A stretch of 64,000 nt of DNA, from positions 844,769 through 908,768 of the forward strand of contig OZ244779.1 of the NCBI GenBank assembly GCA_965219575.1, written 5' to 3'. A program made the translations under genes and the position numbers. Below the pieces are notes generated by a model that saw only the letters and a program-made list of their open reading frames with translations, did no database searches and had not been told where the DNA came from. The stretch comes from Candidatus Oxydemutatoraceae bacterium (GTDB lineage: Bacteria > Pseudomonadota > Gammaproteobacteria > Poriferisulfidales > Oxydemutatoraceae). Position 1 is the first letter of the stretch. Every line of letters begins with the position of its first letter. Positions 36,395-42,672 of this stretch are shown one piece after another.

Positions 36395-36925
36395 ATGAGC
36401 GCACTGGTCAAAGAGGCTCTACCGGAGGCGTACGCTACCGATACCTTAAATAAAAAAGGTGAGCATAATCATCTCGGGGCGACTAAAGTTTTTCTGTCTA
36501 GAATGACCGATGCGGATATTGCGAAGGTGCATGCCTTGGAAAGCCGCTCGTATTCGTTCCCGTGGTCGCAACTGATATTTTCGGACTGTATCAATTCCCG
36601 ATACGAGTGCTGGGTAATGAAGAGATCGGACAAAGTGATTGCATACGGCATCATGGCAATCGGTATAGACGAGAGTCATTTATTGAATCTCTGCGTAGAT
36701 TCCGACTTTAGAAGACAAGGCTATGCCTGCTATATGGTTAGGTTTTTATCCGATATTTCTATAGTGCGAAATGCCAAGCGTATGTTGCTCGAGGTCAGGG
36801 CAAGCAATCATAAAGCATTCAACCTTTATCGTAAATTAGGTTTTCAACAAATCGGTTTACGAAACAACTATTATCCTGCCGAGACCGATAGGGAAGACGC
36901 GCGAGTGCTTGCTAAATTACTTTAA
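36395..36925 (+). CDS. rimI: Ribosomal protein S18 alanine N-acetyltransferase
   Basis: FPWS, ESHLLNLCV, LEVRASN, RNNYY, REDA. Confidence 0.92.
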   Translation: MSALVKEALPEAYATDTLNKKGEHNHLGATKVFLSRMTDADIAKVHALESRSYSFPWSQLIFSDCINSRYECWVMKRSDKVIAYGIMAIGIDESHLLNLCVDSDFRRQGYACYMVRFLSDISIVRNAKRMLLEVRASNHKAFNLYRKLGFQQIGLRNNYYPAETDREDARVLAKLL

Positions 36926-36932
36926 GCAAACC

Positions 36933-38318
36933 ATGCGATATGTGCCGTTTTTTTTGGAACTGAGAGGGAAGCGGGGTTTAGTGGTCGGCGGCGGTGAAAT
37001 CGCAACGCGTAAGGCGCGCCGATTGCTCGACGGTGGCATGAAACTTAAAATAGTTGCCCCTGAAATTTCCGAGCCGATGCGAGAATTAGGAGCGCAGTCA
37101 TCGTGTGTGATAGAGAAGCGCCCCTTTGAAGATGACGATGTCAAAGGCGCATACATAGTCGTCTCGGCAACCGACCGCAGAACGGTCAATCATCGCGTCT
37201 CCGAACTGGCTAAGGCACAAGGTAGTTTAGTCAATATCGCCGACGATGCCGACGAGGCAAATCTGTTATTTCCGTCTTTGGTAGACCGTAGTCCTCTACA
37301 AATCGCAATTTCGGCAGGCGGTGCTTCACCGTCGTTGTCGCGCCTACTACGATCTTATTTAGAAGGTTTCATACCCTCGGGTTATGCCGAACTTGCCGAG
37401 TTGTTGGAACGATACCGAGGCCGAGTCAAAGAGAAATATCGAACACCGGCTCGGCGTCGTTCTTTTTGGGATGTTGTTTTGAGAGGTCGGGTTGCCGATG
37501 CGATTTTTGCCGGACGATACGAAGAAGCCGAAGCGAGCTTGCTTGCATTGCTGAACGACGAACAAAAAATCGAGGAGTACACGGGAGAGATTTATCTGGT
37601 CGGTGCCGGCCCCGGCGACCCCGATTTATTGACGATAAAAGCCTTGCGTTTGATGCAGCAAGCCGATGTGGTTGTCTACGACCGATTGGTTTCGGACAGC
37701 ATACATCGATTGTTAAAACCCGGCATCGAGAAAATCTATGCCGGCAAGCAACCTTCGCAACATGCAATGTCGCAAGAAGAAATTAATCGCTTATTGGTTA
37801 AATTGGCAAAACAAGGGAAAAAAGTGTTACGTCTAAAAGGCGGCGATCCCTTCATCTTCGGTAGAGGTGGTGAAGAGATAGAAACTCTATTCGAAGAGGG
37901 TATTCCGTTTCAAATCGTTCCCGGCATCACTGCGGCACTAGGTTGCGCCGCCTACAGCGGCATTCCTCTGACCCACAGAGACTACGCTCAGTCGTGTGTC
38001 TTTGTGACCGGACACCGCCGAGACGGAACCGTTAATCTAAACTGGGATTTCTTGACACAAGAAAATCAAACCTTGATTTTCTACATGGGTTTGCTCGGAT
38101 TGGAACACATCTGCGCATCGCTAATCGAACATGGCATGCCGCCCGAAACTCCCATCGCATTGATAATGCACGGCACTTTGACGGACCAAAAAGTTATAGT
38201 CTCCGACCTGAGAAACATCATAACAAAAGTGCGTGGTGAAGAAATCAAACCACCCACCTTGGTTATCGTCGGCAAAGTCGTAGAACTGTATAACAAACTG
38301 CAGTGGTATCGATTATAG
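36933..38318 (+). CDS. cysG: Siroheme synthase
   Basis: VVGGGEIA dehydrogenase domain; LVGAGPGDPDLLT and RLKGGDPFIFGRGGEE methyltransferase domain; ATG 36933 preferred over TTG 36909. Confidence 0.96.
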   Translation: MRYVPFFLELRGKRGLVVGGGEIATRKARRLLDGGMKLKIVAPEISEPMRELGAQSSCVIEKRPFEDDDVKGAYIVVSATDRRTVNHRVSELAKAQGSLVNIADDADEANLLFPSLVDRSPLQIAISAGGASPSLSRLLRSYLEGFIPSGYAELAELLERYRGRVKEKYRTPARRRSFWDVVLRGRVADAIFAGRYEEAEASLLALLNDEQKIEEYTGEIYLVGAGPGDPDLLTIKALRLMQQADVVVYDRLVSDSIHRLLKPGIEKIYAGKQPSQHAMSQEEINRLLVKLAKQGKKVLRLKGGDPFIFGRGGEEIETLFEEGIPFQIVPGITAALGCAAYSGIPLTHRDYAQSCVFVTGHRRDGTVNLNWDFLTQENQTLIFYMGLLGLEHICASLIEHGMPPETPIALIMHGTLTDQKVIVSDLRNIITKVRGEEIKPPTLVIVGKVVELYNKLQWYRL

Positions 38319-38327
38319 TTTGGTATA

Positions 38328-38909
38328 ATGGCCTTAGGAGGAACAATCATGAATATTTCTTATTTAATCAAAATCCCGGTTCTGTGTTTGTGCGTAGCGG
38401 TTATTTTTGTCGGCACGATGCCGCCTTCCCTATCAATCTCGCCGTTCAACCAACCCGATGTATTGCCGCAATTCCATACTCAAGCGACGGAAGATTGGAT
38501 TAATTCTTCTCCGTTGCGAGTAGAGGACTTAAGAGGAAAAGTCGTATTGGTTGATTTTTGGACTTACGGTTGCTGGAATTGTTATCGTTCTTTTCCGTGG
38601 TTAAATGCTATGGAGGCTCGCTTGAAGGATGAAGATTTTATCGTAATCGGTGTTCACACACCGGAGTTCGATCACGAACGAGACCGACGCAAGGTGGCGG
38701 AGAAAGTCGAGGAATTCGATCTGCACCACCCCGTTGTTATAGATAACGATAGTCTTTACTGGCGGGCTATGCGTAATCGCTATTGGCCGGCATTTTATGT
38801 GGTAGATAAGCGAGGGCGCATACGGCATCGGTTTGTCGGCGAAACGCACGAAGGTACCCGGCGTGCTACGACCATAGAAAAAGCAATAGTTAAACTGCTG
38901 GCAGAATAG
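38328..38909 (+). CDS. Redoxin / DipZ-like thioredoxin-fold protein
   Basis: DFWTYGCWNC, IGVHTPEF, NRYWPA; N-terminal hydrophobic segment. Confidence 0.88.
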   Translation: MALGGTIMNISYLIKIPVLCLCVAVIFVGTMPPSLSISPFNQPDVLPQFHTQATEDWINSSPLRVEDLRGKVVLVDFWTYGCWNCYRSFPWLNAMEARLKDEDFIVIGVHTPEFDHERDRRKVAEKVEEFDLHHPVVIDNDSLYWRAMRNRYWPAFYVVDKRGRIRHRFVGETHEGTRRATTIEKAIVKLLAE

Positions 38910-39008
38910 AACCACCGATTGAGCCGGTAGGTCAATCGGTGTGACATTGTGCAGAACCGGGGGGCTGTTGAAAAAGTATTTCATACAATGTAGGGGCGGA
39001 CTTGCATG
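38901..39008. repeat. Hairpin unit + TIR + left arm of the REP interrupted by IS110
   Basis: GCAGAATAGAACCACCGATTGAGCCGGTAGGTCAATCGGT; GGGGCTGTTGAAAAAGT; GTAGGGGCGGACTTGCATG. Confidence 0.85.
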
Positions 39009-39083
39009 ATGCCTTATTAAAAATCAAGTCGTTTTATTCATTTTTTATCTCCTTTTGCGAGTATTGATTTAGGACACAGATGC

Positions 39084-40058
39084 TCAACAATAATTCGTGT
39101 CAAACGGTTGCTTGTGCGTGGTGACCCCGTAAATAATACGCGTGAGCTTATGCGCGCAAGCAACAATAATCTGCTTTTTAGTTAACTCCGGACGGCGGCG
39201 ACTTAATTGGTCGGCAAATGCACGGATGGTTGGGTTATGAACCCGTGCCGAGAGTGCTGCCATAAATAGGAGGGTGCGCAGGTCGGCATTGCCCTGTTTA
39301 GAGATGGGCGTGGGCGATGCGCAGTTGCCGGATTGCTTGTGCTTGGGCGTGATGCCGATATAGGCGGCGAGTTGCTTTGGATGGCGAAACGTATTATCAT
39401 CCAGTACTGCACACAGGGCAGCCGCAGTTTGAGTTCCGATTCCAGGAATGGAACACAGCAACTGGTGAAGCTGTGTGAGGTGCTCGTCTTGAGCGATGAT
39501 TTTGTCCATTGAGGCATTAATCTTATCGATCTGCTTCTCATGGTTCTTCAGGCTAGTGGCTGCCACCTTTTTTTGCTTCGCATCGCGCAGAGTTTTAGCG
39601 CAATTGCTTAACATCGTATGACACTTGACTAATTCCCTACGCCATTTCAGTGCGTCGCGCAAGGCTTGCACAGCCGGTGAGGGCTTTTGCCAATTGTTTT
39701 CAGGCGGGATAGCAAATACGAAGCGTGCGATGATACGCGCATCCACGCGATCGGTTTTACTGCGTATGCCGAGCGAGTCGCGGAATCTAGAGATCAGCAC
39801 CGGTACTGCAACGGTGATTGGATGCCCGGCATCATAGCCGGCCATGCACAGGTCTAGTTCAAGACCGCCGGTCGCCTCAACGCAGATGCGACACTGCTGT
39901 GCGCAGTGTTTGCTCGCCCAAGCTAACAACTGCTTGATGCCTTGGGCATCACTACTAAATTGTTGTTCGGCAAAACTATTATCGGTGAATAGTATAGCCG
40001 CCTCTAAAGTGTCTTTAGAGACATCAACGCCAATCGTGACGGGTTGTTTGTTTTCCAT
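39084..40058 (-). CDS. IS110 family transposase (bridge recombinase)
   Basis: DEDD residues in IGVDVSK, VEATG, KTDRVDA; SIPGIG; GITPKHKQSG with catalytic Ser; SKQGNADLR. Confidence 0.96.
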   Translation of the reverse strand: MENKQPVTIGVDVSKDTLEAAILFTDNSFAEQQFSSDAQGIKQLLAWASKHCAQQCRICVEATGGLELDLCMAGYDAGHPITVAVPVLISRFRDSLGIRSKTDRVDARIIARFVFAIPPENNWQKPSPAVQALRDALKWRRELVKCHTMLSNCAKTLRDAKQKKVAATSLKNHEKQIDKINASMDKIIAQDEHLTQLHQLLCSIPGIGTQTAAALCAVLDDNTFRHPKQLAAYIGITPKHKQSGNCASPTPISKQGNADLRTLLFMAALSARVHNPTIRAFADQLSRRRPELTKKQIIVACAHKLTRIIYGVTTHKQPFDTNYC

Positions 40059-40119
40059 AATAAATTACTCCATAAGGGTTGGTTAATGAATGAAATACTA
40101 GGTATCAAACACAGTTTAG

Positions 40120-40300
40120 GAAAGTATGACTACGCCGCCCAAACAGATGAATACGAGATCTAAAGTCCCAAGCTGCCTTTCGAGCTCTATAGTCATAACG
40201 CCGGAGGAGTGCTTCTCATGCAAACAGGCTTTTAATGCCTCGTCCGTCCTACAGCGTGTCTCCTCCGACTTCCTAGGTACTGCATCTACCTAAGCGTTTA
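40120..40300 (-). ncRNA. Bridge RNA of the IS110 element
   Basis: 5' hairpin (40274-40292), stem CGGAGGAG/CTCCTCCG (40202-40267) and stem TATGACTA/TAGTCATA (40125-40197); loop segments match the target and donor sequences. Confidence 0.82.
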
Positions 40301-40333
40301 TCTTATATTAAATAAGCCAGGGTTTAATATATC

Positions 40334-40432
40334 TGTCCGCCCGTAACGCGTTATGCATGGACGATTTATACATTCATTCATCCAATTCATGAAAACCAAC
40401 CCAACCGCCCTGCGCCATTTGATTTTGGTTTC
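40334..40432. repeat. Right arm of the interrupted REP and continuation of the composite repeat
   Basis: TGTCCGCCCGTAACGCG..ACGATTTATACATTCATTCATCCAATTCATGAAAACC, matching 2250-2305 and the reverse complement of ~24383-24440. Confidence 0.82.
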
Positions 40433-40508
40433 TAGAGTATTTAATCGGATTAATACATCGTTAGGCTATGTATAATAATCGTGTTTAGAATGCCCGATAC
40501 CGTAAACC

Positions 40509-41609
40509 ATGTCTCAATCCAAGCGTATTTTGTTGTTAGCCGGCGACGGTATAGGTCCCGAGGTCGTTGCCGAAGCGATCAAGCTGATTAAATGTATGCA
40601 ATCCGAGGGGCATGCGATTGAATATCGGGAGGCGTTAATAGGCGGTGCCGCATACGATGTTCACGATAAACCGTTGCCCGACGAGACACTGGAAGCGGCC
40701 GAGGAATGCGATGCCTTATTGATGGGTGCGGTAGGCGCGCCGCAATACGAAAATCTCGAGCGGGAGTTGCGTCCGGAAAGAGGACTATTAGCCATCCGCA
40801 GGGAGCTGGGCTTGTTTGCCAATTTGCGGCCGGCGTTATTATTCAAACCGTTGGCTACCCGTTCCAGTTTGCGTGCCGAATTGATAGAAGGACTCGATGT
40901 TTTGATAGTCAGAGAGTTGACGGGTGGGATTTATTTCGGTGAACCGCGTGGTTTGCGGATCGATGCCGGAGGCCGTCGCGAGGCTTACAACACGATGATA
41001 TATAGCGAGGATGAAATAGAGCGTATTGCGCGTATTGCCTACGAGGCGGCACAGTTGCGCAACGGTCGCTTGTGTTCGGTTGACAAGGCGAATGTGTTGG
41101 AGGTGTCCGAGTTGTGGCGCGAGGTCGTAGAGCGTTTGGCATCCGATTATCCCGATGTAACACTCAGCCATCTTTATGTGGACAATGCGGCGATGCAGTT
41201 GGTGCGCGCACCCAAGCAGTTCGATGTGATAGTTACTTCTAATTTATTCGGTGACATATTGTCGGATTTAGCGGCGATGTTGACCGGATCTATCGGCATG
41301 TTGCCGTCGGCATCTTTGAATCAATCGGGTAAGGGACTGTACGAGCCGGTGCACGGTTCGGCACCCGATATAGCGGGACAAGGGCGCGCCAATCCACTGG
41401 CCGCAATTCTATCGTTGGCAATGCTATTGCGCTATTCTTTGGATATGCTACAGTCGGCGAAGCGCATCGAGCAAGCGGTTGCGCTCGCCGTAGAGACCCA
41501 TCGCACACCCGATATCGCCGCTGCGGATAAAGCCGTATCGACTACCGAGTTGGGTGATGCCGTAGTGCGATATTACGATGAACTCGGATACAATGATACG
41601 CTCGGCTAA
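40509..41609 (+). CDS. leuB: 3-isopropylmalate dehydrogenase
   Basis: [45 protein letters not shown]. Confidence 0.98.
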
Positions 41610-41643
41610 TACATAAAACATGCCGATAATATAGGGATATAAG

Positions 41644-42672
41644 ATGAAAAAGATAAATATAGCGGTGGTAGGTGCGACCGGAGCGGTCGGCGAAATGATG
41701 CTCAAAGTCTTAGAGCAGCGTAGCTTTCCGGTGAACGATTTATATCCTCTTGCGAGCAAACGTTCCGCGGGCGGTGTGGTTCAATTCGGAGGTCAAGCCT
41801 ACGAGGTCGGTCTATTGGACGATTTTGATTTCACGCGTACGACCCTCGCGCTATTTTCGGCAGGTGCTTCGGTTTCGGATATCTATGCGCCGCGTGCGGC
41901 AAAAGCCGGCAATATCGTAATAGACAATACTTCGCGTTTTCGCAACGAAGCGGATATTCCGCTCGTGGTGCCGGAGGTCAACCCGCACGCTGCCGCCGAT
42001 TATCAAAAGCATCGTATTATAGCCAACCCTAATTGTTCTACGATACAAATGGTTATGGTCCTAAAACCGCTACATAATTTGTTTCAAATAAGTCGCGTCA
42101 ATGTTGCAACATATCAGGCTGTATCGGGTGCCGGCAGACGCGCCGTAGAAGAGATGCTGTTGCAAACCCGCATGAAGCTCAATAACGAGGCGGTGCATCC
42201 CGAGATTTACCCCAAGCAGATTGCGTTTAATGCATTGCCGCAGATAGACTGCTTCATGGAGAACGGCTATACCAGAGAGGAAATGAAAATGGTATGGGAA
42301 ACACAAAAGATTTTGGAGGACGAGCGTATTAGAGTCAATCCCACGGCGGTGCGCATACCGGTTGCCAACGGACATTCGGAAGCTATACACATCGAGTTCG
42401 AGCAGGAGATTGACGAAGTCGCTGCCCGCAAAGCACTCGAGGATGCTCCCGGCGTTATCGTGTTGGACGAACGCATGGAGGGTGCTTATCCGACGGCTGC
42501 AACCGAAGCCGATAATCAAGACGCAGTTTGGGTTGGGCGCATACGCAAAGATATTTCTCATCCTTGCGGGCTCAATGTGTGGGTGGTTGCCGACAATTTG
42601 CGCAAGGGTGCTGCGACCAATAGCGTGCAGATAGCGGAATTGATAATTCGCGAATACTTGAGCCATGTCTAA
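41644..42672 (+). CDS. asd: Aspartate-semialdehyde dehydrogenase
   Basis: VVGATGAVG, ANPNCST, YQAVSGAG, DNLRKGAA. Confidence 0.97.
   Translation: MKKINIAVVGATGAVGEMMLKVLEQRSFPVNDLYPLASKRSAGGVVQFGGQAYEVGLLDDFDFTRTTLALFSAGASVSDIYAPRAAKAGNIVIDNTSRFRNEADIPLVVPEVNPHAAADYQKHRIIANPNCSTIQMVMVLKPLHNLFQISRVNVATYQAVSGAGRRAVEEMLLQTRMKLNNEAVHPEIYPKQIAFNALPQIDCFMENGYTREEMKMVWETQKILEDERIRVNPTAVRIPVANGHSEAIHIEFEQEIDEVAARKALEDAPGVIVLDERMEGAYPTAATEADNQDAVWVGRIRKDISHPCGLNVWVVADNLRKGAATNSVQIAELIIREYLSHV

Follow-up and report, generated by a model that had tools for sequence, protein, structure and literature searches.

We analysed a stretch of 64,000 nucleotides (nt) from the genome of a Candidatus Oxydemutatoraceae bacterium (contig OZ244779.1, positions 844,769 to 908,768; hereafter, the window). 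On the minus strand, the window carries a predicted insertion sequence of the IS110 group, which is inserted into the loop of a repetitive extragenic palindromic (REP) hairpin, GGGCGGA-CA-TGCAAGTCCGCCC. The element has a left end of 277 nt that is non-coding, a recombinase gene, and a right end of 80 nt that includes the stop codon. Its features are collected in Table 1, and sequences are given on the element's strand throughout.

Table 1. Features of the IS110-group element and its insertion site, in window coordinates.
Feature	Position	Strand	Basis or remark
Predicted IS110-group element, whole	39007-40335	minus	1,329 bp with both CA copies; 1,327 bp with one core copy
Predicted IS110-family DEDD/Ser recombinase gene (324 amino acids)	39084..40058	minus	Domains and alignment
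Left target (LT) GGGCGGA, left arm of the split REP hairpin	40336..40342	minus	Same arm at all 7 copies; element flanked by inverted repeat I5
Left CA core copy	40334..40335	minus	Junction versus empty REPs
Right CA core copy	39007..39008	minus	Junction versus empty REPs
Right target (RT) TGCAAGTCCGCCCC, remaining REP loop and right arm	38993..39006	minus	Junction comparison
Left donor (LD) AAGGCAT, final 7 nt of the right end	39009..39015	minus	Junction comparison
Predicted -35 box TTGATT in the right end, 13 nt ahead of the core	39022..39027	minus	Joining of right end to left end
Predicted -10 box TATATT inside the right donor (RD), starting 2 nt past the core	40326..40331	minus	11 of 11 distinct combinations of right and left ends
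5' stem-loop of the putative bridge RNA (left-end positions 42-64)	40272..40294	minus	8 pairs in the fold
Putative target-binding loop (TBL) module	40200..40269	minus	10-bp outer stem (left-end positions 67-76 with 127-136), internal loop, inner hairpin (96-110)
Putative donor-binding loop (DBL) module	40125..40197	minus	9-bp outer stem (left-end positions 139-147 with 203-211), second stem (151-155 with 195-199), inner hairpin (166-182)
Putative left target guide (LTG) GGACGGACG	40241..40249	minus	Same sense as LT plus core; 7/9, or 8/9 with G.T wobble at the second core base
Putative right target guide (RTG) TTTGCATG	40217..40224	minus	Complement of CA plus TGCAA; 7/7; handshake AG at 40216-40215
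Putative left donor guide (LDG) AAGGCAGCT	40171..40179	minus	7/9 to LD plus core, AAGGCAT-CA
Putative right donor guide (RDG) region	40142..40153	minus	ATCTG at 40148-40144 pairs with CAGAT, 5/5; handshake TT at 40143-40142

The original prediction for this locus was made from the letters of the window, and it described an intact IS110 element. The recombinase bears this out. It contains the Pfam domains PF01548 (E = 1e-19) and PF02371 (E = 1.2e-24), and it scores 215.6 bits against the NCBIfam model NF033542, "IS110 family RNA-guided transposase" (cut-off 140). Residues 8–321 align to the transposases of ISCro4 (E = 5.6e-46) and IS621 (E = 3.8e-45). Counting on the IS621 alignment and allowing for a 2-residue offset of the PDB chain, D12, E61, D103, D106, and S243 correspond to the catalytic residues D11, E60, D102, D105, and S241 of IS621, and all five are invariant in 7 members of the clade. 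The protein also keeps the EATG motif, whose glycine in IS621 is said to read the T of the core (Hiraizumi et al. 2024, PMC11208158; here and below, what we say of published systems follows the available parts of the cited papers). IS621 N84 aligns to V85. By these matches we assign the protein to the IS110 group of the IS110 family.

The junctions of the element are precise. At the left junction, the sequence reads GGGCGGA-CA-GATATATT (core at 40335–40334), and at the right junction it reads AAGGCAT-CA-TGCAAGTCC (core at 39008–39007). Unoccupied REPs read GGGCGGACATGCAAGTCCGCCC, with a single CA, and we found 40 exact 14-nt empty sites. We found no IS1111-type subterminal inverted repeats at the ends of the element; the sole end-to-end inverted repeat is the split REP itself (I5). 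At the orthologous intergenic site in a genus-mate (G004), between the same two genes, there is an unbroken REP of that genome's own type (L050). Furthermore, contigs from four public sequencing runs (X1, X2, X6, and X9, from four studies) cover the element, and other contigs diverge exactly at the core copies (39008 and 40334) as empty REPs. One low-depth record among these (depth 2.5) may come from an empty allele or from a paralogous REP unit.

The genome (2.37 Mb, one contig) has seven full copies of the element, at C1 positions 883758, 1306699, 1375521, 1384818, 1429115, 2071209, and 2328204. Three of them are 97–100% identical to the window copy and four are 80–81% identical. All seven reading frames are open. 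All seven copies lie at the same point of the REP hairpin with differing outer flanks, so the insertions are many and independent. All seven are on the minus strand, and REPs of the same type are divided between 126 on the plus strand and 115 on the minus strand (the chance under 0.5 is 0.016). Replichore does not explain this strand bias: cumulative GC skew is lowest near 2.33 Mb and highest near 1.50 Mb, and the copies are not all on one replichore.

Unbroken hairpins of the targeted type read GGGCGGAC-ATGCAA-GTCCGCCC. We counted 295 REP hairpins with 8-nt arms and a 6-nt loop in the genome. The loop has the form AT...A in 241 of them, and the commonest such loops are ATGTTA (59), ATGCAA (45), ATGCTA (38), ATGCCA (37), ATATAA (32), and ATACAA (17). 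Open reading frames of at least 200 amino acids make up 81.5% of the genome and contain 13 of the 295 hairpins. It is reasonable to regard the REP as a safe harbour for the element, as had been suggested from the window. Both sides of the insertion (38900–38990 and 40343–40460) show that the REP is embedded in longer repeated units: a 57-nt stretch adjoining the left arm recurs dozens of times in the genus-mates G003 and G004, and the same flanks recur beside many empty REPs. The REPs of this host are parts of composite mosaic repeats. One REP (G000:C1:1743022, minus strand) has a 10-nt loop, ...GGACATGCATGCAAGTCC, with a 4-nt ATGC duplication at the insertion point, which may be due to slippage or may be a footprint.

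A predicted -35/-10 pair assembles only when the right end of the element is joined to its left end. Joined through one CA, all 11 of the distinct end combinations give TTGATT (or TTGACT), 17 nt, and TATATT. When the element is integrated, ATAACG stands at the -35 position and matches at 3 of 6 bases, and a promoter scan of the integrated locus returned a single weak site, beside the start codon. The annotated IS621 copy that we used for comparison (L053) has TTGCAG, 13 nt, CT, 2 nt, and TATTAT, which is the identical geometry.

Downstream of this junction, the left end appears to encode a bridge RNA. Folded as a single sequence, it forms two long stem-loops with internal loops (z = -2.3). The IS621-type layout that had been proposed for this region is visible both in the fold and in a side-by-side reading with the real IS621 copy. 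We aligned 13 left ends (9 distinct sequences, 215 columns), and RNAalifold on its own recovered all 7 of the helices that we had drawn by hand, along with two short extra ones. In this alignment, 99.8% of the paired cells are compatible with pairing, and this falls to 32–47% once the partners are slid. Variation is concentrated in the putative guides: 49 of the 215 columns vary, including 7 of 9 in the LTG and 4 of 8 in the RTG, and the stems vary at 10 of 92 (guides versus the rest, Fisher p = 0.006). In the 5' stem-loop, one pair has changed on both sides (45–61), and three one-sided changes keep the pairing. Between variants, the RNA segment is 88–97% identical and the coding DNA is 66–78% identical. 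Outside the window, there is also an orphan piece that resembles the first half of the bridge RNA (L008:1500–1670, which is G000:C1 at about 2,280,550–2,280,720, plus strand). The piece comprises a 5' stem-loop and a TBL outer stem (GTCGGAGGAG ... CTCCTCCGGC), with an interior that is longer and different. With no donor loop and no transposase reading frame nearby, it could be either a relic or a free-standing RNA.

The four guide-like motifs of the original prediction lie exactly where they had been placed, as counted on the minus strand; the right-target motif, TTGCATG, is at 40223–40217. As a control for chance, we shuffled the 277-nt left end 5,000 times, preserving dinucleotides, and looked for a target-type pair, meaning a left-target match of at least 7/9 followed 10–30 nt on by an exact 7-mer complement of the core and right target. 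None of the 5,000 shuffles had a target-type pair, 34 had a donor-type pair, and none had both. There is another 7/9 match to the left donor at left-end positions 95–103, within the first-loop hairpin. We did not count it as a guide because it changes in variant E (see below) without a change in the donor. The RDG may have a discontiguous extension with 2 nt bulged. In the right end, a 12-nt stretch at 39035–39046 is 83% complementary to the RDG region at 40142–40153 (I6), which could be chance or an extra donor contact.

The bases that follow the right guides resemble the handshake bases of IS621. The first handshake base of the TBL is A in all variants, which would pair with T7 of the donor and mismatch A7 or G7 of the target. 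The first handshake base of the DBL is U in five of six variants, which would pair with A7 of the target or wobble with G7; in variant E it is G. The second handshake bases fit partially.

To compare guides with sites across copies, we took 30 loci and dropped 4 that were truncated. This left 26 complete left ends from 4 genomes, 24 of which also had right ends, and the left ends fall into six guide variants (A to F). Variant A, which includes the window copy, has the RTG TTTGCATG, an exact match to the core plus 5 nt, and both of its copies are in CA-TGCAA sites (2/2). Variant B has the RTG TTAGCATG, and four of its five copies are in CA-TGCTA sites; the fifth is in TGTTA. The RTG of variant D, GTTGCATG, goes with TGCAA sites (2/2), that of variant E, TTAGCATG, with a TGCTA site (1/1), and that of variant F, TTAACATG, with TGTTA sites (10/11). 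Variants A and B reside in one genome where both loop types abound, and the joint chance of their choice of sites is about 1.3e-4 (from a pool of 248 REPs with AT...A loops). The left guide follows the stem of the REP. The LTG is GGACGGAC(G/A) where the REP arm is GGGCGGA, and arms of GAGAGGG and GGGAGGG go with TCGAGGGC(T) and GAGAGGAT(T); positions 4 and 7 of the LTG change together with the stem (GGGCGGA versus GAGAGGG).

The donor side shows the same relationship. The donor ends are nearly constant, with one variable base in the right donor (RD position 4, A or G at the element's left end). In all six variants, a U/C change in the RDG accompanies it: ATCTG is found with CAGAT, and ACCTG with CAGGT. 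The LDG of variant D, AAGGCATCT, matches its donor at 8 of 9 positions. This natural covariation, with the targets and with the element's own ends, supports the predicted role of these motifs as guides.

Could the first loop resemble the REP simply because it captured a fragment of one, with the target being chosen by the protein or by the DNA hairpin? Because the target is palindromic, the LTG followed by the RTG is collinear with the reverse complement of the REP, with a hairpin inserted, as a captured fragment would be. Also, the target stem-loop of ISPpu10 is reported to promote integration by itself (preprint 10.64898/2026.03.19.712850). A captured fragment would not track the loop variant of each copy within one genome, though, and it would leave unexplained the covariation of the RDG with the right donor, which is internal to the element. 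The IS621-like placement of the loops, the predicted junction promoter, and the putative handshake bases would be unexplained as well. We consider a captured fragment very improbable and guides by far the better account of the first loop.

The core had been predicted to be CA, and this holds in all six variants and at every junction that we compared with an empty site. IS621-type bridge RNA elements have a CT core, which is not what we found here. Because the target and donor bases differ on both sides of the dinucleotide (A/T before it and T/G after it), the crossover is placed at exactly CA. This core was defined by sequence comparison alone, and in principle the true core could be a neighbouring or different pair. 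We think that such a mis-assignment is most unlikely: CA is exactly what target and donor share; the RTG and the RDG both carry an invariant UG opposite the core (columns 118–119 and 191–192); the core sits in the predicted junction promoter at the same spacing as the CT of IS621; and two aberrant junctions, in which an element lies inside another copy's left end (L024 and L033), are both at CA.

The published cores that we could compare are different. CT is the core of IS621, IS622/ISCro4, and ISPpu10, and relatives of IS621 are said to be almost invariant for the second T (PMC11208160, PMC11208158, 10.1101/2025.05.14.653916, 10.64898/2026.03.19.712850). In the available text of these papers, the cores that were tested are CT and the first-base changes GT, AT, and TT only. 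A full-text literature search, with supplementary tables outside its reach, found no CA core in IS110 elements. The thousands of target/donor pairs of Durrant et al. may well contain CA cores. The novelty of the CA core is provisional because CA may already sit in published supplementary data.

Overall, we consider it highly probable that this is an autonomous IS110-group insertion sequence that works like IS621. On excision, the right end would be joined to the left with one CA between them, and the junction would assemble a sigma-70-type promoter (TTGATT, 17 nt, TATATT) that drives transcription of a bridge RNA of about 195 nt from the left end. The recombinase would bind this RNA. Its first internal loop would read the REP hairpin, and its second loop would read the joined ends of the element, the LDG with AAGGCAT-C and the RDG with CA-GAT. 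The DEDD/Ser recombinase would then exchange strands at the CA that is common to donor and target, which would place the element in an intergenic REP loop.

Several observations weigh against this account. On the target side, the RTG of variant C, ATGGTATG, is an exact match at none of its three sites. In our reading, G.U wobble would let it pair fully with two of them and leave one mismatch in the third, and it may cover several loop variants in this way. The LTG matches are imperfect (5 to 8 of 9 positions, with 7/9 in the window copy and only 5/9 in variant F), and the left guides are unpaired with the second core base in most variants. Structural covariation is weak, with a two-sided change in one pair and a covariation score that 38 of 500 shuffles also attain. 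Of the covariation that had been anticipated among homologous elements, the part that concerns guides, targets, and ends was found and that in the stems was weak. As the stems hardly vary, the RNA structure is supported by conservation and layout and not by strong covariation. A search of the region against Rfam found no bridge RNA family and gave two sub-threshold, unrelated matches. A covariance model that we built from the clade (R1) gives the IS621 left end a score of 3.7 bits only (E = 0.4), with the helices misplaced, so the case for RNA homology to IS621 is one of layout and not of score. The public sequencing runs listed for this stretch include no RNA runs. Finally, the contigs of the four public runs contain no joint of right end to left end, although contigs cannot show rare joints.

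This last result bears on whether the element still moves. It could be a genuine IS110 bridge RNA element that no longer moves in this genome, with old copies kept by inertia. Besides the lack of a circle or excision joint in those contigs, the two subfamilies in the genome are about 20% apart in DNA, and two copies in G003 (L037 and L040) have interrupted transposase genes. Yet the seven frames in the window's genome are all intact; the window copy is 99% identical to a second copy at another site; G004 has 17 matches, many of them identical; the guides still match the occupied sites; and a rare joint would be invisible in contigs anyway. We judge immobility to be unlikely, and the element is probably active today.

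Among 40 relatives searched, only the four other genomes of the genus contained homologues with E ≤ 1e-20. One contig of a metagenome-assembled genome of an uncultured "Candidatus Porisulfidus" carries 8 loci. Among 400 scored genomes of the same class (G287 was left unscored), there was no match with E ≤ 1e-50 besides the window's own genome. A metagenome scan found 2 loci only, at 26% identity. A tblastn search of plasmids gave 54 records, all under 60% identity, and the IS621-family genes there are at about 32%.

Some of the copies in these genomes are rearranged. In L024 (at about 1160–1230) and L033, upstream of the left end, there are partial left ends in tandem, with a full element fused at CA inside another's left end. 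These tandems resemble the tandem non-coding expansions at IS110 loci that are described in a preprint (10.64898/2026.08.14.744561). In L037 and L040, the transposase match stops at residue 231–233, and residues 229–324 are about 1.1 kb away, apparently because of an insertion in the gene. Two other copies are mosaics. L027, in the window's genome (G000), has the RNA module of variant B together with a transposase and distal left end like those of variant A (97.5% and 100%). L028, in G003, has an RNA module of the A/C type and a transposase that is only 78% identical in DNA. RNA and enzyme modules are exchanged between co-resident elements. As for its neighbours, the window copy sits between two convergently unrelated open reading frames, and neither is interrupted. 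From the translations by eye, we take the flanking frames (36909–38909 and 40509–42672) to be siroheme synthase-, thioredoxin-, 3-isopropylmalate dehydrogenase-, and aspartate-semialdehyde dehydrogenase-like.

These observations lead us to a broader proposal, to which we give a little less than even confidence: that this is a natural clade of bridge recombinases that exchanges strands at CA, in which the RTG and RDG read the core strictly as UG and the bottom-strand guides leave its second base unpaired or wobbled, with natural retargeting among co-resident REP variants and free shuffling of RNA and transposase modules. Bridge recombinases are in development as programmable tools for the insertion, inversion, and excision of DNA, and the core dinucleotide is among their few fixed constraints. 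Orthogonal CT and GT cores are reported to stop cross-talk between two bridge RNAs already, at a cost in efficiency. Should CA be the true preference of the enzyme, it would offer a ready-made orthogonal core for bridge editing beside CT and GT, and a case in which to test how the core is recognized. A natural CA system would widen the range of addressable sites and could supply a second, fully orthogonal core. The locus is also a clean natural experiment, with six guide variants in four related genomes and REP retargeting on a fixed RNA scaffold. The natural variants support the guide rules, including a strict right guide and a permissive left guide, without engineering. We read the element as a working bridge RNA insertion sequence of a known type, with CA as an unusual natural core and with an unusually clear natural series of retargeting.

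Among the systems described in the literature, the element shares the most with IS621 of Escherichia coli (Durrant et al. 2024, PMC11208160; Hiraizumi et al. 2024, PMC11208158). Both belong to the IS110 group and have a long left end and a short right end. The putative RNA here has the same order as that of IS621, namely a 5' stem-loop, the target loop, and the donor loop; in both, the LTG and LDG are in the sense of the left halves, the RTG and RDG complement the right halves, and the guides cover the core. The bases that follow the RTG and RDG here fit the handshake bases of IS621 in part. The predicted promoter across the joined ends has the spacing of the IS621 promoter, both elements insert into REPs, and the catalytic residues align. 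In the IS621 copy that we read (L053), the LTG abuts the inner hairpin, and the RTG lies just past the hairpin and is followed by two handshake bases. There are also differences: the IS621 protein is about 32% identical to that of the window, its core is CT and not CA, and its natural RTG covers the core plus 2 nt, as compared to the core plus 5 nt here. The left guides here mismatch the second core base in most variants, and the LDG of the IS621 copy mismatches it too.

ISCro4/IS622 of Citrobacter rodentium (10.1101/2025.05.14.653916; PDB 9t56) is the best match in PDB; its bridge RNA works on the same principle, and it has 14-nt sites and handshake guides. It differs in having a CT core and an enterobacterial host, and versions engineered for use in human cells exist. 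ISPpu10 and ISPpu9 of Pseudomonas putida (10.64898/2026.03.19.712850; PMC12288879) are also multicopy IS110 elements, with every copy inside a REP, and have a junction promoter that drives the RNA. Experiments with ISPpu10 found a strict right guide and a permissive left guide (10.64898/2026.03.19.712850), and we see the same asymmetry in natural variants. These elements differ in their CT core, and the REP stem-loop of ISPpu10 is 5' of the site, whereas the crossover here is at the boundary between the stem and the loop of the hairpin. The IS1111-group seekRNA elements (Siddiquee et al. 2024, PMC11187229) also have a DEDD transposase, and their RNA matches both target strands over short stretches. 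In that group, the RNA is downstream of the gene, the order of the guides is reversed, and there are subterminal inverted repeats of 11–13 bp.

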